DNA from: a virus
Lineage: Duplodnaviria; Caudoviricetes
IMG/VR virus record: IMGVR_UViG_3300010163_000016
Location: 1 to 64,000 of that record
Direction: 5' to 3' (one strand)
DNA: 64,000 bases
Shown here: one piece after another, positions 11,893 to 61,548 of the stretch
Layout: each line of letters opens with the position of its first letter
How positions within the stretch are numbered: position 1 is the stretch's first letter
The notes under the pieces: model-generated
Seen by the model: only the letters and a program-made list of their open reading frames with translations
Databases searched by the model: none
What the model was told of the DNA's origin: nothing
Position numbers and translations under genes: made by a program

Positions 11893-12275
11893 ATCAGATC
11901 CTCCAGTTCAACGCCAGTTTCATAACATTCAGCCGCTGGGATCTTCTGAACCATATTTTCTTGTAGAAAGGGCTCATACTGGATGATTGACTGACAAGTG
12001 CAGGTCTTGCCGTTTTCAAAATACGCCTTCCAGCGGTCTTCAATATCTTCTCCATCACCGGTCAGTTCAAAGAAACAGCCTGGATACTGCACGGACAGCT
12101 GCAGCAGATCGGTTTCCCACTCATACCATTTTGCGTACCCGCTGGCATAGACCCTACTCCCTACAGATGCTGTGTCATTAAAAACACAGAGGTTGTCCAG
12201 GTCCTTCAGAAGCTGATCCCGCATGCCGGACATAACATGATTAACCGTCAAATCAAATGTCGTATAGTAGCCCAT
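11889..12275 (-). CDS. Hypothetical protein with DLI tail
   Basis: MGYYT...AKWYEWE...GEDIED; ends VELEDLI. Confidence 0.7.
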   Translation of the reverse strand: MGYYTTFDLTVNHVMSGMRDQLLKDLDNLCVFNDTASVGSRVYASGYAKWYEWETDLLQLSVQYPGCFFELTGDGEDIEDRWKAYFENGKTCTCQSIIQYEPFLQENMVQKIPAAECYETGVELEDLI

Positions 12276-12287
12276 ATTCTTTCTCCC

Positions 12288-12632
12288 TTAGATCAAATCG
12301 TCGATGTTTGGCAGGAGCGCGTCGTCCTTCATCAGCCACTCCTGGAAGGTATACCATGTGTGCTCGTTGACACCGCTGGCATCGGACAGCGTCCCATTTT
12401 CCAGGAGCGTATGCGCCATATCCCGGTTGATCCTGGCGATACAATGGGGAAATTTCTCTCCAAGAGCCCAGCGGAAGCCGGCTGTTTCAGGCATCAGGGC
12501 AAATTGCGGAACGAAACCAAACTTCCCCAGCATGGAATATCCGGCGGCGTGCAGCATGTTAGCCAACTCCAAGCACTCCTCCTGTGTATCGCAGAGGATA
12601 CACTCCCCTCTTTTCAGCAGCATATATCCCAC
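12288..12632 (-). CDS. Small protein with DLI tail (C-[DE]-[TS]-x-EE family)
   Basis: ILCDTQEECLE; ends PNIDDLI. Confidence 0.7.
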   Translation of the reverse strand: MGYMLLKRGECILCDTQEECLELANMLHAAGYSMLGKFGFVPQFALMPETAGFRWALGEKFPHCIARINRDMAHTLLENGTLSDASGVNEHTWYTFQEWLMKDDALLPNIDDLI

Positions 12633-12639
12633 TCCTTTT

Positions 12640-12813
12640 TCAAATCAGCTCCAAAACAATAGGGTAAGGCCATCCGGGTTGCGTCTGGGCCATAACGGCA
12701 TTCCCTCCCGCCACATTGCCTTTGAGAGCAACACCATGGCCTGGACCATTAGGGTCATGACATTTGAAAATCTGGAAGCCGCCGCCCCGGCGGAAAAATT
12801 CATGGATATCCAT
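12640..12813 (-). CDS. 57-aa ORF below the track cutoff
   Basis: AGGAG RBS; MDIHEFFRRGGG...PIVLELI fills the gap between genes. Confidence 0.4.
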   Translation of the reverse strand: MDIHEFFRRGGGFQIFKCHDPNGPGHGVALKGNVAGGNAVMAQTQPGWPYPIVLELI

Positions 12814-12822
12814 ATCGCACTC

Positions 12823-13134
12823 CTATATTAAATCGGAAACGTCCACGAAGGCAGCATGGACCTCCGCCGGGAACAGGTCTGCCGCAGCGATGTGCCTATA
12901 GCCAGTGATTTCCCTGCCGTTTCCATATGCATTGACCCCACGCGACGTCAAAAACAAATATTGCCAGTAACTGCTTCCATCATAGGATCGTTCCCAATTC
13001 GTCCGCGGCACCCCATAGATGGTTTCCATCAGGGGGGCGACGATCAGCGTTTCTTCCTGAGAGTCACACACGACAAAGCTGTAGTCGCCACACCCCTGGA
13101 CGCCGATCGCTTCAATAAGCTGTTCCCTTGTCAA
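12823..13134 (-). CDS. Small protein with DLI tail (C-[DE]-[TS]-x-EE family)
   Basis: FVVCDSQEETL; ends VDVSDLI. Confidence 0.7.
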   Translation of the reverse strand: MTREQLIEAIGVQGCGDYSFVVCDSQEETLIVAPLMETIYGVPRTNWERSYDGSSYWQYLFLTSRGVNAYGNGREITGYRHIAAADLFPAEVHAAFVDVSDLI

Positions 13135-29165: not shown

Positions 29166-29936
29166 ATGTCCGTGATCCAGCTCCAGCAATTTATACAGCC
29201 AGTTCCCCATCAATTCAGGAGACCACGCAACATCACAATAGTCAATTCCATATTCAATGACACGACCCCGGAACCCAAGAGGCACCCGGCTGATCCGCTG
29301 AAGGATAGTAACGATATCAAGCGGATATGCGATTTTCTGGTAGAGCATCAACGCTACCGTGATAATCTGCTGTTTACAGCTGGCGTCAATCTTGGTTTTC
29401 GGTGCGGCGACCTGCTTCAGCTCAAGTGGGGTCATCTGCTTTACCCAGATGGCAGCTACAGAGCTTCGGTCACACTGCAGGAGCAGAAGACCAGCAAATG
29501 CAGAACCGCCTACTATTGCCAAGCGATATGGGATGCAGCCGATCTTTACCTTGAGAGGCTGGAGCGAGACTATGGTGGCGTGGACCTGAATTCTTTTGTT
29601 TTTAAGGGGGAATCGAACCGTAATAACAGTGACAAGCCGCTGACCGTTTACTCAGTGGAACGCATCCTGAAGTCCGTTATTAACGACGAACTCCACATCG
29701 ACATCAACGCCAGCACCCACTGCCTGAGAAAGACATTCGGCTACCATGTCGTAATGACTGCCCGCGACCGCACCCGTGCTGTGGAGCTGCTTCAGAAAAT
29801 CTTCGGACACTCCTCCCCTTCCATCACGCTTGCCTATATCGGCATCACCAACGAAGAAATCCGGAGTGTCTATGAGAATCTGAACCTTGGATTGCTGAAC
29901 CCGGCACAGTGCTGCGGCGTGGAGATGGCTGGTTGA
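29166..29936 (+). CDS. Tyrosine recombinase, short catalytic-domain type
   Basis: GFRCGDLL, THCLRKTFG, FGHSSPSITLAY. Confidence 0.9.
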   Translation: MSVIQLQQFIQPVPHQFRRPRNITIVNSIFNDTTPEPKRHPADPLKDSNDIKRICDFLVEHQRYRDNLLFTAGVNLGFRCGDLLQLKWGHLLYPDGSYRASVTLQEQKTSKCRTAYYCQAIWDAADLYLERLERDYGGVDLNSFVFKGESNRNNSDKPLTVYSVERILKSVINDELHIDINASTHCLRKTFGYHVVMTARDRTRAVELLQKIFGHSSPSITLAYIGITNEEIRSVYENLNLGLLNPAQCCGVEMAG

Positions 29937-32625: not shown

Positions 32626-35600
32626 GTGCGAGGTATAGCTCTTTCCAGGCTCTATCCCATCTACAGCTTGCAGACCTCCGCGTTCTACACAGACGAGGAG
32701 GCTGAAATCGACCGTCAGCTCTGCGCCCTCCGCGTGAGGGCCAATCAGGGCAAAAAGTCCGGCGCAAGGAAAAAGAGCCGGCAGCAGCGGGAAAATGAGA
32801 AGCTCCCCCCGCTGACGAAAGCGGAGCGAAAGGAAAATATCCAACAAATCAAGACTGCAAAGGAGCGCCTGAAACAGAAGCTCCTTGAAAATATGAGTAT
32901 CACCAGAACGGTGCGCCCAGAGTTCCTGGCCGACCGGAATATCATCTGCATCTTTGACTCCGACCTGACGCGCTCTCTGGGCCTGCGGGAGGATGCCTTG
33001 AACGACGCCATCATTATCGTCAAGGTCTATTATTACGAGGTGGCCGAGAGCATCATCAAGAACGGATTTTACATGAATGGAGAGAAGTACGTCTTCTTCT
33101 CCGCCAGCGCCGGCCAGATCCGCACCAAGAAGTTTGTGGCCGTGAAGGAAACCGCTATCGCCCAGTGCATGGACAAGCTGACCTGCGGGCTGTCCCTGGA
33201 GCGGATCAACCGCCAGGGCGGCGTCAATGTGAACAAATATCTGGCCTATCTGGCCCTGTGCAACAGCGCAACCGACCTGTGGGAAGATTTTGACATCGAC
33301 CGCTGTATCGTGGTGGAGGATTTTGAAACGCAGGTCCCGGCTATGGTGGACCACATCACAGTGGAGGACGGCGCCATTGCCCGACGCCGGATGGATGTGC
33401 CAGTCACCCACACCGACGGCTGCGGCATGGTCCTCCCCTCCGTCTCCGCTAAAAATTTCATGGTGCGTCTGCCCTGGATCAAAGGGCTGCTGGCCGCCTT
33501 CCCCTTCGATAAGTTCATCCGGGAGGCCAACCGCCGGGACAGCACCGTGAATCACGGCCTCATCACCGACATCTACGGCGTGGAGCATGACGTACTAGCG
33601 GAGGATATCCGCATCATCTTCACCCGCTCCCAATTCAAACTGGCGGGCCACTACGGTTCCTGGGATGAGTACAAGGCAAATTTCAAGCAATTTGGCTGCT
33701 CTGCCGGGAAATGCAATGTGGAGGAGAGCTACATTCCCAACGCTCAATTCAACTATCAAATGCTACAGACTTTGAGCGATATGACAAGCGATGAATTGGA
33801 GGAATTGGCTTCCAAGACCAATGAGAAGATCCGGCGGCTCAGTTCGGACCGCGGGACGATGCTCCAGGTCTTTGGCGCGGCCAGGTTTGACCGGCGGGAG
33901 GAGCCCTTCCAGGAGTGCCTGCACATCTACCCGGAGCTTCTCCAGGACGCCTACTGTGTGGAGTCCCTGCGCTCCATCAAAAACAAGCTGGTCAAGGAGG
34001 GGCGGGGCGGCAGGCTGGACATCCGCGGGAAATACCTCTTTTTGATCCCTGACCTCTATGCCGCCTGCGAGCACTGGTTCCTGGGTGTTGAAACGCCCAG
34101 GGGGCTGCTGGCCGACGGCGAGGTCTATTGCCGCTCCTTCCCTGCCGACAAAAAGCTGGACTGCCTGCGCAGCCCCCATCTCTATCGGGAGCACGCTGTC
34201 CGCCGAAATGTGTTTGGAGAGGATGACGAGCGAAAGCGGTGGTTTGCCACCGACGGCATCTATACCAGCAGCTGGGATGTGATTTCGAAGATTTTACAGT
34301 AAACTATCTTGCTGTACCGGCTCGAAAGGGTCGGATATAAAACTCCGTGAACCCGTAATTGCGGGGTGTCTGCCCTATTAGCAGGCTAACGGTGAAGGCT
34401 TCATTGATAATACCGTGCTAAGATCAAACACGAGGTAAATCTAATTAGGAGGATTTACTGCAATCGAAGAATTTAAAGAAATAAATTACCAGGGCATCCA
34501 TTACAGAGTAGGAAACGAAGGTACCATATACAGAAATGGAAATCCAGCAAAAATCATTGTATCACCAGATGGTTATCACAAAGTATCTACCAAAACCAGC
34601 AATATCGGAGTGCATAGATTGGTAGCTATGTGTTGGGTAGAAAATGATGACCCTGGTACTAAAACCGAAGTAAACCATAAGGACTATTGCCGAACCAATA
34701 ATCGTGCCAGTAATTTGGAATGGCTGTCTCATGCGGACAATATTCGGTATTCAGCTGGCAGGAAAAATATCCGTGGAGAAAGAAACCCGAATTATGGTAA
34801 TAAAGCTTTGAGCAGGTTTTACCGCGATCACCATGATGTTGCAATCATAAAGCAGGGACGCCCAGGACTTCAAAATGGGCGATGCAGATCAATATCGGTA
34901 TATAAGGACGGTTGTTTACTTCACACATTTGATATGGTGATTGATTGCTGCCGCTATCTCCAAAAAGAATATGGAGTGTCTGCAAATCTGATATCCATTC
35001 GATGTCAGATTGACAGAAGCATCAGAGATGGAAAACCATATAAAGGGCTTACCTTTCAAAAATAAGTACTTTGTGTTTGATAAAAGTGTAACGACTATCG
35101 AACGGATAGCCGGCTGGGCTTCGGGTCAGCCGGTGAGGAACCAAGTAGAGTAGCTGTTGGGTGAAACTCCCGGCAGCGAAGCGCGGAGCACCTAAGTCCG
35201 AGAGGATATGGTGAAGAGATAGTCTGCCTCCGCTCCGGCGGAGACGTTGATAATGACGGAGACAAGTCGCTGGTGTGCGCGGAGCCGGTGGTCATCGAGG
35301 CTGCTGAGCGCAACTGCAAGGATGTTGTTCCCCTGTACTATGAGATGAAAAAAGCCCCCGCCCATGTCCTTGACGCTGATCTGATGTGGCGGGGGATGAA
35401 AAACGCCTACGACGGCGGTAAGATCGGCCCCATCAGCAACAGCATTTCCAAGATATGGAACAGCGCCTCACCGGATCTGGACGCTGTCAAGCTGCTGTGT
35501 GCCCAGAATAATTTCGTAATCGACTACGCGAAGACGTTATATATGCCTGACTGGCCGGAAGAGGCGGCGCTGCGGATGCAGCGGGCTTCCTCCGGCAAGG

Positions 35601-38254: not shown

Positions 38255-39277
38255 ATGGGACGGAAAACAAAGCAGAACAAGCTGACGTCCCCCGAGTTGC
38301 TTGCCCAGGTCAATCCTGATAATCGGGACCTCCTGGATGATTTTCTGACCTATTTAAAGTCCACGCAGCACAGCCCGGGGACGATCAGCGGCTATAAGAA
38401 TGATCTGGAGATTTTCTTTGTGTGGTGCCTTCAGAATTGCAGGAATAAACACTTCACGGAGATCACCAAACGGGAAATCATCTCCTATCAGAATTGGCTG
38501 CTGACGGAAAACGAGAACTCCCCCGCGCGCGTAAGGCGCATGAAGAGCGCGCTCTCCAGCCTCAGCAGCTACGTTGAGGATGTCCTGGACGATGAGTTCA
38601 AGGGATACAAGCCGGTTGTCAAAAAAATTAAGAATCCTCCGATCCGGCCGGTTCGGGAGAAGACCGTATGGCAAGATGCTGAACTGGAAGAGCTGCTGGA
38701 GAAATTGGGTGAGGCCGGCGAGCATGAGAAAGCCTGCGTGGTCGCCCTCGCCATGTACAGCGGCCGGCGCAAGGCAGAACTCTGCCGGTTCCGTGTCTCT
38801 GATTTTGATGAGACCAACTTGGTTTGCGACGGCGCCCTGTACAAGAGTGCTCCCATCAGGACCAAGGGCCGTGCAGGCGGAAAGTATATCCCTTGCTACA
38901 CATTGGCAAAAAAATTCAAGCCCTATCTGGACGCCTGGCTGAAACAGCGGGAGGGGCTGGGCATTGAGAGCGAGTGGCTGTTTCCTGACAAGAACGACCG
39001 GACACAGCAGATCCGTTTGTCCACGCTGAACAGCTGGGCGGAGATATTCAGCCGTATAACGGGCAGGCCGTTTTATTTACATAGTCTGAGGCATTTGTGG
39101 ACTTCCAACATGGTGCGCGCCGGCATCCCGGACAGTGTCATTGCCCAGATCATCGGCTGGGACTCTATCGACATGTGCCGGGTCTATACCGACATTGATA
39201 CCGATGAACAAGTCTCCATGTATTTTGAAAACGGCGACATCAAGCAGAGTGTAAAGAGAGATATCTCGGACCTATGA
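38255..39277 (+). CDS. Tyrosine recombinase / integrase family protein
   Basis: YSGRRKAEL, HSLRH, IIGW...RVY catalytic set. Confidence 0.85.
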   Translation: MGRKTKQNKLTSPELLAQVNPDNRDLLDDFLTYLKSTQHSPGTISGYKNDLEIFFVWCLQNCRNKHFTEITKREIISYQNWLLTENENSPARVRRMKSALSSLSSYVEDVLDDEFKGYKPVVKKIKNPPIRPVREKTVWQDAELEELLEKLGEAGEHEKACVVALAMYSGRRKAELCRFRVSDFDETNLVCDGALYKSAPIRTKGRAGGKYIPCYTLAKKFKPYLDAWLKQREGLGIESEWLFPDKNDRTQQIRLSTLNSWAEIFSRITGRPFYLHSLRHLWTSNMVRAGIPDSVIAQIIGWDSIDMCRVYTDIDTDEQVSMYFENGDIKQSVKRDISDL

Positions 39278-53416: not shown

Positions 53417-56400
53417 GTGGAACATGCATTGAGCGAAGCCCTTGAATTACTATTTGGCGTAAAAGGCGGCAGCGAAATATCGCCTGGTACATCCGGCGGG
53501 CAGATCAAGGCGGATATCGACAGCATTGTCAAGCAGCTCCATACCGGCGGAAGTCTGGAGCTGACCTTTACCGCCAAACAGGACTCTCTGTCGGCGCTGC
53601 GGGACGAGATCAAGAAGGCCGCTGGCAACATTGAAGTCACCTTCGCCAAGGGAGGCAGTATTGGCGGCGATGGTCCCGGCGGCGCCAAGAGCGCAGATCA
53701 GGAGCTGAAAAGCATCAAGGCCCTGACGGACGGCTGGAAACAATACTATGCGCTCAGGACCAAAGCGACGAATGCAAAGCGCAATGACACGCGGGGTGTT
53801 TATGACAAGGCCGCCTACCGCCTGCGCACTGAGCTGATAGAGCAGGAAAAGCAGTATCAGCTGACAGCCCGACAGACCGTTGTGATAGACCGCCTAAAGG
53901 CAGAGGAACAGAGGAAACTCGGCCTGGCGGTAGAGCTCAGCAGCAAAGCCGCACAGAGGCGCAGCGCGGCAGAGAAAAAGGCCGTCTCTGCGTCTCTTGT
54001 TCAGGTCGCCGAGCTGCGCAGTCAGTATCGAAATTTCCAGAAGGAAATGCATGCGGCTTCCTTCTCCGGTCTGATCAGCCAAAACGATCTTGCCGATCTG
54101 GAAGCTGTCGCCAAACAGGCGATGACCATCAAGAAGATCGATCTGACGGGTGTGGTGAAAGAAACAGACCTTGCGAACATTAACCTGCAAAGGCTTGGCA
54201 AGGTCAACCTGGATCACACCATCAAGACCATCTCCTCCCTCAGATCGAAAGTCAAATCCCTTACGGAGGAGACGATCGGCGGTCAGCGCGCAGCTGCCGC
54301 GGTTTCCAACAGCTACGATAAGCTGGCGAACCGTATGCAGGACTATATGACGCGCATCCAGGCCAGCTTAAAGAGCGATCCGTATACCTATCAGAAACTG
54401 CAGCACATGATAGACCAGGTACGCCTTGGACCAACAGGCGCATATCGGTCCGTCGTTCAGGCGTCCGCGGCATTCCAGCGGCTGCAGGGTGATATCAAGA
54501 TGGCTGGCTTGGAGTCTGAAACGCTGGGGCAGTCGATTACACGAATCTTCAAGCAGAAGTTCGGTTACGGCGTGATCGCGTCTGCCGCGCTGGTCGCGCG
54601 GAGGAGCCTGCAGCAGGTCTACCAAGACGTGGTGGAGATCGACGCCAAGCTGACCGAATTGCAGATCGTTTCCGGCGAGTCCGGTGAAACCATGGTCCGC
54701 TATATGGACAAGGCCGCCGCCAGCGCCAAGCGGGTTTCCGCCGCCATTACCGATATCATCGACGCCACAACGGTTTACCGCCGTCTGGGCTTCAGCATGT
54801 CTGACAGCCTGGATTTTGCGGAACTGACGACGATGTACTCCAAGGTGGGCGGCGTTGAGATCGGCGAAGCGGAGAGCAACATCACCGCCATCATCAAGGC
54901 ATTTAACCTTGAAAACGCGGATAAGCTGCGGGAAGCAATGGACAAAATTGTTAGGATCGGCAACAATTTTGCCATTAGCAGCGCGGAAATCGGGCAAGGC
55001 CTTAACAACGCCGCCTCTGCTCTGGTGGCGGCCAACAACTCCTTTGAAGAGAGCCTGGCTGTTCTGACCGCAGCGCAAGCTATCACGCAGGACGCAAGCA
55101 AGAGCAGTACGGCCATCAGGACCATTGCTGCCCGCCTTACGCAGAGCAATACGGAGCTGGAGGATCTGGGCGAGGAGCTCGACAGCGCCTACAGCACGAC
55201 AGCCAAATATCGTGAAAAGCTTCTGGCAATCACTGGTGTTGACATCCTGAAAGAGAACGGACAGGATTTTAAGAGCACTTTCCAGATCCTGCGGGAGCTT
55301 GCCGGAGCCTGGGAGGGTCTGAGCGACCTGGACCAGTCATCTGTGACCTATATGGTCGCAGGCATTCGCAACTCCAACGTGTTTAATTCCCTCATGCAGC
55401 AGTGGAAGGACGCCGAGGGCGTCGTAAAAGCTGCCGCTACCGCTTCCGGCGCTATGTCGGAGGCATATGAGGTCTATACAGATTCGATTGAAGGCAGGCT
55501 GAATGTTCTGAAGGCCAGCGCCCAGGAATTAAGCGCAGATCTGCTTGATGATGCTGTTGTCAAAGGCGCTGTCAGCGGCGTGACTGCGTTGGTCAATGCC
55601 TTTGATCGTTTGATCGATACCGTGGGCCCCCTCCCTGTTGTTTTGGGTGGAATTGGGCTGGCGGGATTGATCCATTCGGTGGGTGGGGCTAAATGGATTG
55701 CCCTCACAAGTGCGCCCACCTATGTCCCGGCGGTGACGCGGAACGAGTATGTAGCGTGATCGTGCTGCATACAAGGGGACATTGGAAAAACCGGTTAAAT
55801 TGGCCCTGAAAGGGCGGCGAGTTTGGACAATTCTCGTCCGGGAACTGAAAAGAACCCGCAGCGAAGCTCAGGATGAAGATGAAACTGTATTTTCATTGTG
55901 AGAACGTTCAACGACTATAATGCCGGTACGGCACCCCGACGATACAGGGCTCTGTCGTGATGGGATAGTCTGGTCAACCGTCGAGAGGCGGAAAAATTGT
56001 AAGCGGTTCGGCACCGCTGCCAACATGCCGGAATAGAATTAAGGATGCCTGAACCCATCAAAGGAATCAGGCATCCTGCAATGGGGAGTCAGTTGTCATT
56101 TACAATGTCAGAGTAGATTTGCAACTAATGTGGGGTCTTCCTTTAGTATTTTATAGGCGGTCCACATCTCACTAAGTTGTTTCAAATGTGAACTTGGGAC
56201 TGTAACATCTTTGTAGCCCTCACCTTTAAACCGGATCGTAACATTGTCTGCTGTAATCATATCTTCTACGATAGGTTCTAAATCAATCAGCCGAGGATCG
56301 TCATATGATTCCAGACCGTATTTTGACAAATCAACGTTAAAATGCCCATATGGCGCTATCTCCGCAATTGATCCTCCGCTTATATCGGTTATGCGATCCC

Positions 56401-59400
56401 AAAAATCTACATATAGCGTATGTTGTGACTTGTCACAATCAATAACAATCTTATCAATAAACAGCCAGTCTGATTGCCGAAAGCCTAAAAAGAAGGTGAA
56501 AAGTACGTTCTGATTATCATCGACCACGATCCATGGTTCAATATTTCTGTTATATCCTATATCAATGTATTTTGTACTCAGTCCTTTCGGTACTATGTTA
56601 TATTCCTTGTCTATTTTATCATACTGGATTGTGATATCTGCTTTCATGTTTTGCAGGCGTTCAACGGACATTTGGCGGTTTAATTCCGATAATGTGGTTG
56701 AGAATTTTGTATCTAAGGCTTTCCCATTATCGTCAGTGAGCGTTAAAATAGCATCTTGTATATCTCCTGAACGGGCTTGCTCCTCCGCTAAAGCAAATAC
56801 TTCTTCAATAGACCTATTCTTGATTTGCTCAACCGCATCATTTATGAGATCAGCAGGGGTTATCATTAAATAAATAAGAATTTCCCTATATTGCTCCTGG
56901 CTCACCATACTTTCGATTTCTTGCAGTACAAGATGTTGGAAGTTTTCCTGTCTTTCTTTTCTGTCATTGCGGAATGTATCGCTTTGGTAAGATGGATCTA
57001 AATCAGCATAGAGGGCAAAGGCCTCAAGCGTTTTCCCATCAGCAAGCAATTCATTTGCCTGGGATTGGATTTCTTCATAAATCATATCTTGCGCATTGTT
57101 CTTGCAGTCTTGTGCTTTTGTATAATTTAAAATATCTTCTTTGGTAACTTGGGAAAAATTGTCAACTGCTTTCCGATAGTCGCCGTTTTCCAAACAAATA
57201 TCGCCTGATTTATAAGCTTTGCGGGATCTGGAAATGCTCAATATTTCAGTGTCAAACTCTCTCACTTCATGATCTATTAGAAAAAAGTCTAAATAGACGA
57301 AAGCGTCTTGAATGTCTTCTACATTTAAATAAGTGTTTGCATAGTCATTGACTAGGGCAGTTGCTCGTTGTAATGCCTCACTATGCGCCATTTCTGCGAA
57401 CTTAGCATTGTCTTTATTATCATTATAAATTTCAAAGGATCTTTCATATTCACCGCGGGATAGTGCATCCTGAAATCGAAGAATAGGCAAAAAGAAAAAT
57501 GCGGAAACTATGAATGCGATAATGAGAAGGATACATATTGTCCCGCAAATTATCAATATCTTGTTTCTTATTTTCCTTTTCTTTTCTGGTACATTTTCTA
57601 TTTGCAAGTTCCTACTCATTTGCTTTTCCTCCTATATTACGTTTGGGTTCTACTATTTCGTTGCGGTTTGGCCGCCGCAAATAAAAATGACCGACACTAA
57701 AAACAGAACTCATCGGAGCAAACGTAGTATTAGGCAGCGTCCACAATATTCAAACTGCTGTGCAGTGGCTGACACAATATGACGACGCGATTTTGAAGGT
57801 CATTCTGAGTAAAACGACACTCAGCAAAGCAGATCAAAAGGCGGCGCTGGATGCCATCGCCAGGGCCAAGGCAGACCGTCTGGTTTTGGAAGTCAGCAAA
57901 GAACAGATCTTCACAGATGCTGTCGCCGCCGACGCTGACCGCAAAAAAATTGCCGCCGGGTTAAATGCAATCTTTGTTGAAAAGCAGGAAGCAGCCGGTA
58001 TTAAGGCATGTACCCAAGCAGAGCTGGAGCACATGCTGGTCTCCAATGGCGTGAACACAGTCAAGGCGAAAGAGATCGCCGCCAGGTATGCCAACGGCGA
58101 GGCGGCAACGAGAGAGGGGCTCTCCATCAAAGGCGCGGGAGATCTGGCAAAAGCTGCCGCGGCGCGGGTTGGAAAGCTGGTAACAGCGGCCGGCAGCCTC
58201 CCGGCTCTGGCGGCCGCTATCGGTGTCGGCTTCATGGCTGCAAACGCGGTACACGAGGGGTATCAAAAGAGACTTGACGCCTCCAAGGAGAAAAATGAAG
58301 CCCTGATTTCCGAAGTGTCCAATCTGGAGCAGGAGCTGAGGAATGTCCGGGACAGGATCGCAGAGATCAATTCTTTGGATACTCCCACGCTTGCAGATAT
58401 GGAGGAGCTGAAAAACCTCAAGGAGACGAATCGTGAGCTTCAACTGGAGCTGGATACCAAGCGCGAGCTCCAGCGTCTTGCGGCGGCTGAGGCGGAGGAT
58501 AACGCCGCAGCATGGCTCAGAGGAAATCCGTTCCGCATATCGGAAACAACAACCAATCCGTATTCCGGCGAGGCCAGAGTACAGGTCAAGGAAATCAACT
58601 GGAATGAATACGGCGATATTCAGCTCCAGAAATACCACGAGCTCCAGGCACAGCTAAAGTCCGCCCGCGAAGAGGCCGCCGTCCTTGCCGCTTCTCACCC
58701 AGGGCAGGCCGCCCTTGAGGAGGCGCAGGCTAACATTGCCTCCCTGGAGGCGTCTGTCGCCGCGCAGAAAAAGAGCGTCATAGGCTTCTATACAACGATG
58801 AAGGAGAACATCGTTGACGCAATCGGGGATTCCGCCGATACGGAGTGGGGCAAAGAATTCCTGGCCATGTGGGAGAAGTTCCTGGCGGAATATGAGAAAG
58901 TCATTAACGGCCTCAGTCTGGAAAACATCGACCTCAGCGAACATACAGGCGCTATTGCCGCACTGACAAACGCCTTGAACGGCGGCGGCAATACAGACTG
59001 GGAGGGCCTTTACAGGGGCAACTCTGCCGTGAGAGAGCTTATCGATCTGCTCGTTGAGCTTGGCATCATTGACGGTCCCACAACGGACGGCATCCGGTCA
59101 ATCGCAGAAGCCCTGGATCATATGGGTACAGCCGCCGGCAATGCTCACGATGCGCTTTTGCCAACTCTGGAAAGCTTCTCCGCGATCTATGACCGTGTTA
59201 CAGCAAAGACGGATCTCCTCACCAACGCGCAGAACAAGCTGAGCAGCCAGCAGGCTCTGACCAATGAGGAAATCGTAAAGCTTCTTGATGCGTATCCCAG
59301 CCTGATCAGCTGTTATGATGCGGAGACTGGCAAACTGAAAGTCACTGTGGCCGTCCTGCAGGATAAGATCGACGCTGTGATCGCCGGTGAAAAGGCATCC

Positions 59401-61548
59401 CTGGAGGCCTCCAGGAAAACCGTTGAGGGCTACCTTGCGGAGGCGAAAGCCGCATATGCCGCCGCGGAAGCAACTGTCGCCCTGGCCCGTGCCAAAGGCG
59501 CTTCTGCGGTGAAACAGGCGACGCAGGGGAACTCCGCCTCCAGCGGGCGCGCGCTGTATCAATCGGCGCAATCGTATTTCAGGGAATATGAGAAAGTCCT
59601 GGTGAAGGACCGGCAATTATATGCGGAATACCGGAATTTTATGGATTCTGCGGAGAAGCATCAGAACAGCGCGAACTTCCTGATGGACGACCTGAATACC
59701 TTCCGGCTGCTGCAGAGCAAGATCGAAAGCTCTATCAAAAATACCGCTACGGACCGCTTTGACCAGGCGGCTTCAAACTATGAGTCCATGCTGGATACGA
59801 TCGAAGCCCAGATGGCTCTGCTCGATCGGCTTGGGAAATCCGAATTCGGCTCCTCCCTCCCTTCTTCCGCATCCTCTGCGGCCTCTTCTGTTAAGGACGC
59901 TTTTGAGGAGCTGAAGGATCAGCTGAACGACTGGTTTAGCGACATGGAATTCAAGGTGTCCCTGCGTGTGGACGCAGGCGACATCGAGGGAACCATTAAG
60001 CTGTACCAGCAGATGATCGACAAGGCCCAGAAAGCTCTGGACGCCGCCTATTCTGCGGGCAGAACGGTGGATGACGACTGGGTGCAGGAGCTCATCGGCA
60101 AAATCAGCGAATATAAGAAGGCTTTAGCCGATCTGCGTCTGGAGGAGTATGACAAACTCGTCGAATACAACGACGATTTCGACGTTTGGAACAAGGTGAG
60201 CTATCAGAAGCTGGATGTGCTGGCCGGTAAGCTGGAGAAGATCAACGATCTGTACCTCCAGGGCTACCTCTCTTATAAGGACTGGTACGACTATTACACC
60301 AGCACGGCCAAACAGATCTACGACCTCCAGCGGGACGCCCTGGATGAACTTCTGGATACCACCATGGACGCCATCAAAAGTCAGAACGACGCCCAGGTGG
60401 AGGCCCTGGAAAAGCAGTCGGACGTCTGTCAGAAGCTGATCGACCAGAAGAAAAAGCTGCTGGAGGATACCAGGGACCAGTCGGCTTATGAGCGGGAGGT
60501 CGCCAAGCGGGTCAAGGAGATCGCAAAGCTCCAGGAGCGCATTACCCAGCTGGAGCTGGATGACAGCCGGGACGCCGCCGCCGAACGCCACAAGCTGGAG
60601 AGCGAGCTGGCCGAGAAGCAGGAGGCGCTGGCCGACTATCAGGCGGAGTACGGAACAGACGCCGCCCTGGAGGCGCTGGACAAACAGGGCGAAGCCTTTG
60701 ATTCCGCCATGCAGGACCGCATTGACGCTGTTAAAGCTGAGGTGGAGAGCGAGACAGAGCTTCGCCGCCGCGCCATTGCTCTCATTGACCAGGACTACCA
60801 AAAGATGATGCAGAATGTCAAGGGCTACTTTGAGCGTCTTGGCATCACAATCGACAGCGAGCTGCTGGATAAGCTGACCCAGGGCCTCAATCTGGTGTCC
60901 CAGTTCGGCAGCTACACTGGCGCTGAATCAGGAATCGGTGCAAGCGGAAGCTTCTCTCCCCAGCAGATCCCTACGCTGGTAGAACAGATGAAGCGCAACT
61001 CCCAGAGCTGGCATACCGCGAAGGCCGCAGGAGACAAGACGGAGATGCAGCGTTTGAATGATGAGAATGAGCGCATCGCGCAGATGCTCAAGACCATGTT
61101 CGGCCTGGATATCTGGAAAAATGCCGCCCAGGGCAAATGGTATATCCGGCTCAACGGCAAAGAGATGGCGCTTTTTGATGTATATCACCAGGGCGGCGTG
61201 GTCTCCGGTTATCCGACCAAGAACAACAAGGAGGTCATGTCCCTTCTGGAAAAGGGTGAGGTGGTACTGGATGACCCGAAGCAGGAGCGGTTTATCTCCA
61301 TCATAGAAAATGCCGGCAAATGGGCGCAGGCGCGCATGGCCTCCGTGTTCAGCCGGGCGGTCTCCTCTCTTCCCACGCCGGTCTTGGCCGGCACGGGCAC
61401 GCTGGGCAGCTTCTCCCCCACCTTCCAATTTACCTTCCACCACAGCGGCCCCATGACGGAGGATGACGCCAGGCTCTGCGGCGAGATAGCCGCCGACACC
61501 GCCCTGGACAAGCTGTGGGCGACTTTACAGAAGCGGGGCATCGCGTAA
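53417..61548 (+). CDS. Tape measure protein, two exons (53417-55684 and 57694-61548, about 2040 aa)
   Basis: TP901-type TMP core (EIDAKLTELQIVSG...GNNFAISS) and long coiled coils; predicted splice joins HSVG to TLKTEL in frame. Confidence 0.85.
56042..56077 (-). terminator. Hairpin after the intron cargo gene
   Basis: AGGATGCCTGA / TCAGGCATCCT. Confidence 0.55.
56108..57619 (-). CDS. Membrane-anchored 503-aa protein with helical repeats, inside the TMP intron
   Basis: Basic N-terminus, one TM segment, TPR-like repeats, GGAGG RBS, AT-rich. Confidence 0.8.
   Translation of the reverse strand: MSRNLQIENVPEKKRKIRNKILIICGTICILLIIAFIVSAFFFLPILRFQDALSRGEYERSFEIYNDNKDNAKFAEMAHSEALQRATALVNDYANTYLNVEDIQDAFVYLDFFLIDHEVREFDTEILSISRSRKAYKSGDICLENGDYRKAVDNFSQVTKEDILNYTKAQDCKNNAQDMIYEEIQSQANELLADGKTLEAFALYADLDPSYQSDTFRNDRKERQENFQHLVLQEIESMVSQEQYREILIYLMITPADLINDAVEQIKNRSIEEVFALAEEQARSGDIQDAILTLTDDNGKALDTKFSTTLSELNRQMSVERLQNMKADITIQYDKIDKEYNIVPKGLSTKYIDIGYNRNIEPWIVVDDNQNVLFTFFLGFRQSDWLFIDKIVIDCDKSQHTLYVDFWDRITDISGGSIAEIAPYGHFNVDLSKYGLESYDDPRLIDLEPIVEDMITADNVTIRFKGEGYKDVTVPSSHLKQLSEMWTAYKILKEDPTLVANLL

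Follow-up and report, generated by a model that had tools for sequence, protein, structure and literature searches.

The gene for the tape measure protein (TMP) of a virus (Duplodnaviria; Caudoviricetes) recorded in IMG/VR as IMGVR_UViG_3300010163_000016 is divided by a 2,009-nt sequence that has the appearance of a group I intron and that holds, on the opposite strand, a gene for a 503-aa protein, hereafter the cargo gene. The analysed stretch, termed the window, is the first 64 kb of this 83.8-kb virus record, and coordinates without a prefix refer to it. Three long open reading frames (ORFs) lie at the locus, at 53417–55759 on the plus strand (780 aa), at 56108–57619 on the minus strand (503 aa) and at 57760–61548 on the plus strand (1,262 aa); the gene parts to which they correspond are as follows.

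53417–55684, plus strand: TMP exon 1, 756 codons, with the C-terminal end ...IHSVG
55685–57693, plus strand: putative group I intron, 2,009 nt, delimited by in-frame removal, an Rfam match and comparison with relatives
56108–57619, minus strand: cargo gene (P0001), 503 aa, an intact ORF
57694–61548, plus strand: TMP exon 2, 1,284 codons and a stop, starting TLKTELIG...

Both plus-strand ORFs match one 2,625-position profile, phrog_4211, exon 1 at positions 557–943 (5.8e-61) and exon 2 at positions 2108–2550, and exon 1 also matches Pfam PhageMin_Tail (4e-24). Read without splicing, exon 1 meets a stop 24 codons further on, at 55757–55759, and removal of 55685–57693 joins the two TMP frames in phase into a protein of 2,040 aa with zero internal stops. 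The earliest candidate start in exon 2 is a GTG at 57760 that lacks a Shine-Dalgarno sequence; therefore, translation of exon 2 on its own is not expected. No ribosome-binding site was found before exon 2 in the window or in two sets of relatives introduced below (L014 and lineage 3). The GC content of the region, approximately 0.56, drops to 0.35–0.40 across approximately 56050–57700.

Alleles without the intervening sequence support the same reading of the gene. The longer relatives of exon 1 include many uninterrupted TMPs of 1,500–3,100 aa, the best of which, P0007 (2,138 aa), shows 62% identity near the junction. Exon 1 aligns with residues 1–762 of P0007 at 45% identity and exon 2 with its C-terminal 557 aa at 57% identity, the two exons being collinear in P0007, and a multiple alignment sets LIHSVG|TLKTELIG, the predicted spliced junction, opposite LTKSVG|ALKTSIIS of P0007 without a gap. 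The DNA of this intron-less allele (L077) reads TCAGTGGGT-GCATTAAAGAC at the site where the window has TCGGTGGGT|ACACTAAAAAC, and the ligated junction predicted for the window RNA is ...CATTCGGTGGGT-ACACTAAAAACAG. The related phage L015 also has an uninterrupted TMP, of 2,667 aa.

The elements assigned to the ribozyme core and to the splice sites in the window are listed here.

55678–55720, plus strand: P1, exon GGUGGGU (55678–55684) with guide GCCCACC (55714–55720), U55684.G55714 lying at the 5′ splice site
55686–55689 with 55700–55703, plus strand: small hairpin in the P1 loop, seen in the sequence
55743–55993, plus strand: match to Rfam Intron_gpI (RF00028), from P2.1 to P9, over the full model (1–253)
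55791–55926, plus strand: P3 (55791–55795 with 55922–55926), enclosing P4–P6; 5 pairs, 100% paired in 16 sequences, 2 with double changes
55913–55970, plus strand: P7 (55913–55918 with 55965–55970), pseudoknotted with P3; 6 pairs, 100% paired, 2 with double changes
55978–55991, plus strand: P9 hairpin with a GAGA (GNRA-type) loop, from the Rfam match and the alignment
56002–56018, no strand assigned: P9.1 hairpin, conserved with double changes
57661–57680, plus strand: G+C-rich hairpin near the intron 3′ end, from folding
57691–57698, plus strand: putative 3′ splice site, with P9.0 (CC57691-57692:GG55972-55973), omega-G 57693 and P10 (CACU 57695-57698:AGUG 55709-55712)

The RF00028 match has an E value of 6.7e-8 in a 2.6-kb search and 5.2e-10 in a genome search, and a genome-wide search with this model returned the TMP intron as its sole match. 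The original prediction had placed a compact core at about 55685–55975 and the cargo in the P9 region. A core is indeed present there, but it extends further, with P1 beginning at exon base 55678 and P9.1 reaching 56018; likewise, the 1.6-kb insertion is real but follows P9 and P9.1 instead of lying inside P9, and the cargo gene occupies the space between P9.1 and the 3′-terminal P9.0/omega-G segment.

Homologous introns were identified in other phages. A single-protein search of IMG/VR with exon 1 gave no match; an alignment-based IMG/VR scan found the relatives L014, L015 and L016, a conserved 17-mer led to approximately 18 more IMG/VR loci (lineage 3), and a two-block pattern led to 14 metagenome loci, which include human-gut assemblies and a fourth lineage (L064/L065). 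The TMPs of L014 and L016 are split at the equivalent codon, and the intervening sequence starts with a core approximately 70% identical to that of the window; homologous cores at this same codon are also found in the approximately 18 lineage-3 loci and the 14 metagenome loci, which brings the related loci with such a core to some 30. The intron measures 2,009 nt in the window, 2,017 nt in L014, 2,224 nt in L016 and 3,137–3,843 nt in lineage 3. The cores of the relatives give no RF00028 match at E<=0.001, and megablast and blastn searches of GenBank phages with the TMP region and the core returned nothing useful, with one 53-nt match only.

Sixteen core sequences were aligned (alignment A7) and 65 base pairs were counted, the helices written out being P1, the L1 hairpin, P2, two GNRA-capped hairpins, P3, a P5-like hairpin, P6, P7, P8, P9 and P9.1. 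In this alignment 98.7% of the cells are paired, a figure favoured by the partial derivation of the structure from the same sequences, and compensatory double changes, which that derivation does not explain, occur in 20 of the 65 pairs. When the partners were slid by 1–3 columns, 3 or fewer pairs showed double changes, and none of 500 shuffles reached the observed values. P3, P6, P7 and P8 are 100% paired and contain double changes, and P4/P5 is ambiguous. Two pairs of P7 are invariant, G55913-C55970 (GC in 16/16) and A55914-U55969 (AU in 16/16), and these correspond to the usual guanosine-binding position. The seven pairs of P1 (100% paired in the 16 sequences, 2 with double changes) track the exon by lineage, as GGUGGGU/GCCCACC, CGCGGGU/GCCCGCG, UGUGGGU/GCCCACA and CAAGGGU/GCCCUUG, with the fourth variant in L064. 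On this comparison, the first approximately 335 nt of the intron fold as a conserved ribozyme comprising P1, P2, P2.1, P3–P8, P9 and P9.1.

Splicing would take place after U55684 at the 5′ end and after G57693 at the 3′ end, 1.7 kb past the core, the latter site being set by P9.0 (CC:GG) and a short P10. G57693 was taken as omega-G because 57694 is the sole in-frame position after a G within 30 nt past the last stop, TGA 57688–57690. The P9.0 partner GG (55972–55973) directly follows P7, and the P10 partner AGUG (55709–55712) adjoins the guide. P9.0 is CC:GG in the window and UU:AA in the other lineages; like P1, both P9.0 and P10 vary in step with the exon sequences of each lineage. In L014 and L016, a P10 of at least 4 bp is combined with P9.0 at 1–3 of approximately 1,670 G sites, and the site with a 6-bp P10 (AUAUUC/GAAUAU, UU:AA) opens a long exon-2 frame; in lineage 3, a P10 of 6–7 bp (GCAUCA/UGAUGU, UU:AA) opens an exon-2 frame of 700–1,300 aa. 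The 3′ splice site of the L064 lineage was not located by these P10/P9.0 criteria. As an alternative pairing, the loop UUGGC (57668–57672) of the G+C-rich hairpin in the window could pair with GCCAA (56019–56023), giving a tentative P9.2 that would close the cargo loop. The corresponding helix in lineage 3 has 10 bp and joins the bases just after P9.1 to a segment 18–22 nt before omega-G; it is reached by 32–98 of 2000 shuffles and shows U.G, U-A and C-G variants at one position. We regard this helix as a likely, though still putative, stem that closes the cargo loop. An intron-exon stem proposed earlier is present in the minimum-free-energy fold, but with a z of only -2.1, and was not retained.

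Several findings weigh against a functional intron in this phage. The Rfam score, 39.3 bits, is below the curated gathering score of 50, which is why a default Rfam scan of the window is blank. P10 in the window has only 4 bp and is offset by one base, and 25 of 1,601 G sites in the window pass the criterion of a P10 of at least 4 bp with P9.0 when wobble pairs are allowed; because this criterion is unselective, the assignment of the 3′ site in the window rests mainly on the frame, on protein continuity and on homology together with the co-variation of CC:GG with UU:AA. The closing helix has 5–6 bp in the window and L014 and is not significant alone (1063 of 2000 shuffles in the window). The contig is metagenome-derived, linear and known from one record, with an estimated completeness of 66%, and so this particular phage may be non-viable. 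A sub-threshold ribozyme with a short P10 and a weak closing helix, on a single incomplete contig, is what might be seen if 1.6 kb of foreign DNA had parted the core from its 3′ splice site, leaving a dead relic and either a defective phage or a TMP made as two proteins. We consider this quite improbable: the window preserves every helix and departs from the relatives by compensatory changes, many distinct phages keep the layout with a remote 3′ site and 2.0–3.8 kb of cargo, exon 2 is without a ribosome-binding site or a plausible start of its own, and the junction residues are conserved with the intron-less P0007. The covariation of the structure, the intron-less allele and the in-frame junction bear out the group I intron originally proposed in the TMP gene at 55685–57693, and on this sequence evidence the element is very probably real and spliced.

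The cargo gene carries translation and termination signals of its own.

57628–57633, minus strand: ribosome-binding site AGGAGG, 8 nt before the cargo ATG
56042–56077, minus strand: 11-bp G+C-rich hairpin, first candidate antisense terminator, 31 nt past the cargo stop (fold z -3.5)

An in-frame TAG lies four codons upstream of the start, and the ORF therefore cannot be extended. A second candidate terminator is the complement of P9.1 (56018–56002, minus strand), the sole terminator-like site reported in a scan of 55500–57900, in which no sense-strand terminator was found across the intron region; read on the minus strand, P9.1 resembles an intrinsic terminator because the hairpin is followed by UACAAUUUUU. 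The P9.1 element may have a double role, in the ribozyme and as a terminator of antisense cargo transcripts. In all relatives the A-run and P9.1 hairpin are conserved, and the opposite strand there reads as a hairpin and a U-run. The GC content of the cargo gene is 0.374 and that of its third codon positions (GC3) 0.35, as compared with 0.56 and 0.68–0.70 in the TMP exons. The original description of an antisense, AT-rich gene of 503 aa with a ribosome-binding site and a hairpin terminator agrees with the ORF, the AGGAGG, the two hairpins and the GC3 value, and the TM/TPR-like product then proposed agrees with the protein predictions.

The product has a basic N-terminal tail, one transmembrane helix (residues ~19–42), a TPR-like helical region (~45–328) and a conserved C-terminal beta-rich domain (~329–503). 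AlphaFold2 (AF2) models, with predicted local distance difference test scores (pLDDT) of 92.5 (whole protein) and 95.6 (C-terminal domain), contain a membrane helix, approximately 280 residues of paired helices and then a beta-rich domain with two terminal helices. Only four hydrophobic residues precede the Cys that follows the basic tail, and the 24-residue helix after it is modelled as a membrane anchor. The protein is predicted to cross the membrane once, with the N-terminus inside and with the TPR-like scaffold and beta domain on the outer membrane face. Matches to known proteins are confined to helical repeats: Pfam returned TPR matches only, all below threshold; a sequence-profile search of the PDB with the cargo and a Foldseek search of the PDB with the whole model likewise returned TPR repeats or TPR proteins only; and a wide structure search (VIA) with the whole model gave helical-repeat matches with Z of 8.6 or less. 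The BFVD search gave uncharacterised proteins only, and the ESM Atlas unnamed Bacillota clusters. Consistent with the prediction that the passenger is not a homing endonuclease, no nuclease domain of the LAGLIDADG, GIY-YIG, HNH, His-Cys or PD-(D/E)xK type was found in it with Pfam, PHROG or NCBIfam; LAGLIDADG chains that appeared in the structure search reached Z of only 4–5, within noise, and were rejected.

Homologues of the cargo are cellular. Five full-length homologues (P0002–P0006) show 35–37% identity over 96–99% of the length (E 1e-95 to 1e-89), and a profile search collected 1,861 family representatives at E<=1e-3, including 77 at E<=1e-30. An N-terminal zinc ribbon precedes the membrane helix in 26 of 56 family members, which also show TPR matches; the window copy is without the zinc ribbon. 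Genes for a transporter, a PfkB kinase, a PspC-domain protein and a nucleoside hydrolase, or an XRE-type regulator, neighbour the bacterial homologues. A first genome scan for cargo homologues found none, and in a second they turned up in two Clostridia genomes, that of Anaeromassilibacillus senegalensis and a metagenome-assembled one of a rumen member of the Clostridiales; no phage homologue was found in IMG/VR by pattern search or in 50,697 GenBank phage records by tblastn. The cargo family behaves as foreign or accessory DNA in bacteria also. Homologous genes in L002, L004 and L010 are AT-richer than their own contigs, with GC of 0.39 vs 0.42, 0.48 vs 0.61 and 0.50 vs 0.55, respectively. 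We propose, from these comparisons, that the cargo was captured from a low-G+C, Clostridia-type chromosomal family.

Three results count against an expressed and functional gene: a promoter scan found no promoter-like (sigma-70-like) site upstream of the cargo start; the protein has no family match in PHROGs, PADLOC or NCBIfam and none above threshold in Pfam; and the best hit of the C-terminal domain in the structure search, IalB 3dtd, has Z 5.8 with a root-mean-square deviation of 3.5 over 119 residues, which is within noise. With its intact ORF and its signals, we regard the cargo as a real accessory gene that is probably expressed and functional.

A more specific identity had been suggested, namely that the cargo is an Ltp-like superinfection-exclusion (Sie) protein that binds the TMP of incoming phages. 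The predicted topology, with the bulk of the protein outside the membrane, would suit this role, as would the plausibly temperate nature of the phage and the defence-type cargo (a CptIN toxin-antitoxin unit) held at the same site in relatives. The protein, however, resembles no Sie or Ltp family in sequence or fold, its anchor is a transmembrane helix and not a lipoprotein signal, given the four hydrophobic residues before the Cys, and its homologues lie in ordinary chromosomal settings (with PspC-domain, kinase and nucleoside hydrolase genes) and not in prophages. As the protein lacks a lipoprotein signal, matches no Ltp or Sie family and has no homologue among the phages searched, the Ltp-type identity was not upheld and is unlikely at best; superinfection exclusion in general is a guess.

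The relatives carry different genes at the position occupied by the cargo gene, as was anticipated when swapped cargoes in related TMP loci were proposed as a check.

L016:12213–13057: skipping-rope RNA, then 47-nt repeats and a CptIN gene, inside the homologous TMP intron
L014:12004–12770: drum RNA and PBECR4 gene, inside the intron
L014:12773–13207, L016:13282–13878, L024:4269–5027 and L029:11070–11801, minus strand: antisense zinc-ribbon genes, to which an antisense ORF near the L064 intron 3′ end is added

In L016, a skipping-rope RNA (58.5 bits, above gathering) lies directly upstream of a toxin-antitoxin (TA) unit composed of 2.2 copies of a 47-nt repeat (12394–12496) and a CptIN toxin gene (12494–13057; NCBIfam 170 bits, cut-off 90). 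By sequence, the repeat and the CptIN gene have the layout of an entire type III toxin-antitoxin system, enclosed by a group I intron. L014 has a drum RNA, whose 40.5 bits fall slightly short of the gathering score (43), and a gene for a PBECR4 (barnase/EndoU/RelE-like) nuclease at 12181–12723 (1.3e-16), followed by a classical sense-strand terminator at ~12742–12770; because this terminator lies inside the intron, late transcription in L014 would need read-through to arrive at TMP exon 2. The cargo of lineage 3 consists of an aspartyl-protease-like gene and several genes of no known type on both strands. All lineages have AT-rich cargo interiors (GC 0.38–0.45). In all the other lineages an antisense zinc-ribbon gene (144–252 aa) adjoins the 3′ splice site; the window lacks it, and the 503-aa gene, likewise antisense, takes its place. 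The C-terminal motif of the zinc-ribbon protein is VPKCPxCGSxN...GKTxxCxNCGxKF/W, and the protein matches no Pfam, PHROGs, PADLOC or NCBIfam family.

Other interruptions were noted among these phages. The TMP gene of L016 has a second one at L016:10517–10818, which is 302 nt long, ORF-less and frame-shifting, lies between the residues equivalent to 540 and 541 of L015, and has no Rfam match at E<=1. In L015, a separate group I intron (L015:1102–1418; 73 bits, above gathering) lies in a gene ~7.5 kb upstream of the intact TMP gene. An HNH-carrying group I intron that had been proposed in a YonO-like RNA polymerase gene of the window (34301–35246) has no Rfam group I match even at E<=10.

This comparison bears on whether the AT-rich 1.6 kb could be chimeric bacterial DNA joined to a phage contig during assembly. 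The abrupt drop in GC from 0.56 to 0.37 and the otherwise bacterial distribution of the cargo family, with no homologue in the 50,697 phage records or IMG/VR, could be read in that way. Such an artefact is nevertheless highly improbable, because the insert sits exactly where independent assemblies of relatives hold their own AT-rich cargo (interior GC 0.40–0.45), between P9.1 and the 3′-terminal segment; neither intron end is lost and the two exons remain in phase; and the orientation, the ribosome-binding site and the core-facing terminators of the cargo are like those of the antisense genes of the relatives.

It also bears on whether the cargo serves the intron or the particle, as a maturase-like helper, a new mobility factor or a late envelope protein in lysis or assembly. 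Introns without a homing endonuclease need some route of spread, and the conserved antisense zinc-ribbon gene beside the 3′ splice site in all other lineages could mean that this position has an intron-related role. The window protein, however, is unrelated to the zinc-ribbon gene (BLASTP, no link at 1e-5), has no nuclease or RNA-binding domain and belongs to a widespread cellular family, and as modelled, anchored in the membrane with its bulk outside, it would have no access to RNA or DNA. Service to the intron or particle therefore seems improbable. The explanation that we favour overall, and consider likely on the sequence comparisons, is a TMP group I intron whose terminal region stores an independently expressed accessory gene; the earlier view of the intron as a landing pad is borne out by the CptIN type III unit, the drum RNA with PBECR4, the aspartyl-protease-like gene and the zinc-ribbon genes that relatives hold at the same position.

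Under this explanation, RNA polymerase would traverse the cargo during late transcription, the core would fold, the closing helix together with P9.0 and P10 would bring in the distal 3′ end, and the exons would be ligated; as the exons need ligation, no TMP would be made without splicing. The cargo would be transcribed from the opposite strand, starting in or beyond the last approximately 75 nt of the intron, and translated from its strong ribosome-binding site, and its transcript would be stopped at the 11-bp hairpin and then at the complement of P9.1, so that antisense RNA would not reach the core and exon 1. Antisense damping of TMP expression, which had also been suggested, is an unsupported guess; the two antisense terminators that stand before the ribozyme core speak for antisense transcription being kept out of exon 1.

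The window contains two tyrosine recombinase (Phage_integrase) genes, at 29307–29846 and 38678–39202 (42.5 and 64.7 bits), which make lysogeny plausible, and the phage may be temperate or plasmid-like. As a committed guess, the cargo would be an envelope protein expressed in the lysogen to the benefit of the host-prophage pair, by surface modification or by exclusion of other phages; an envelope-level role in defence or exclusion is possible but doubtful. Relatives keep abortive-infection-type cargo, the type III TA unit, at the same place, and the modules seen in the intron family comprise this unit, ncRNA-nuclease pairs and a predicted envelope protein. A broader and still more tentative proposal is that the intron family is specialised for carrying accessory and defence genes, in which the terminal loop is the site of exchange and splicing insulates the essential gene from the cost, the 503-aa protein being a new membrane-anchored exclusion or envelope-defence factor taken from the host.

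To our knowledge, phage group I introns are regarded as selfish elements, with homing endonucleases as their only passengers. The intron described here is conserved and sits at one conserved codon of an essential tail gene, and its accessory passengers are unrelated from phage to phage: a predicted membrane protein, a CptIN toxin-antitoxin unit, and the orphan drum and skipping-rope RNAs with nucleases. This suggests a route by which accessory genes can be kept in an essential late gene, as imprecise deletion of the cargo would break the intron and hence the TMP. The drum and skipping-rope RNAs gain a concrete genomic setting, and the loci offer a natural test case of how a ribozyme finds a 3′ splice site 2–4 kb off. 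Standard annotation misreads such loci: at its gathering score Rfam overlooks the introns, and gene callers present the TMPs as split.

Among known systems, the phage T4 nrdD (sunY) intron reportedly has an ORF 3′ of its catalytic core and a remote 3′ splice junction. It is said to share with the window a compact 5′ core, a long P9-distal insertion and a far 3′ site returned by terminal pairings; the T4 insert, though, is reportedly a sense-strand, homing-endonuclease-type ORF of less than 1 kb, whereas the present insert, which spans 1.6 kb and reaches ~3.4 kb in relatives, is not a nuclease gene and has an antisense or mixed orientation. The group I introns TMP-IVS1/2/3 are located in TMP genes of Bacillus cereus-group prophages (Tourasse and Kolsto 2008, PMC2504315). 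The systems are alike in that, in a Firmicutes phage or prophage, a long TMP gene contains a group I intron and needs splicing to regain one ORF; they differ in that the gene carried here encodes no nuclease, is antisense to the TMP gene and belongs to a set of swappable modules, and the main text of PMC2504315 contains neither "antisense" nor "opposite strand". Nuclear rDNA group I introns at position L2066 contain antisense homing endonuclease genes (PMC9548176); they too have a protein gene opposite to the intron and host gene, but in eukaryotic rDNA and encoding a His-Cys homing endonuclease. The giant mitochondrial group I intron ND5-717 of corallimorpharians and hexacorals, for which back-splicing is reported (PMC6545197), likewise encloses ordinary non-endonuclease genes; these are conserved mitochondrial genes in an organelle, whereas the genes here are variable accessory genes with their own signals. 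A literature search on group I introns combined with moron, cargo or defence retrieved no report of such an arrangement. The drum and skipping-rope RNAs have been tied to particular neighbouring proteins, in either orientation (Weinberg et al., PMC5737381). Ltp of the Streptococcus thermophilus phage TP-J34 mediates superinfection exclusion (PMC3952083), and the cargo resembles it and other morons as an AT-rich, independently signalled gene for a (here predicted) surface-exposed protein in the structural-gene region, although it shares no family, lipoprotein signal or fold with Ltp. Of the attributes by which morons are recognised, the ribosome-binding site, the terminator hairpins, the deviant GC3 and the variable cargo of relatives are present and a promoter was not found; the gene is a candidate moron. 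Morons lie between genes, whereas this gene lies inside an essential gene, in an intron.

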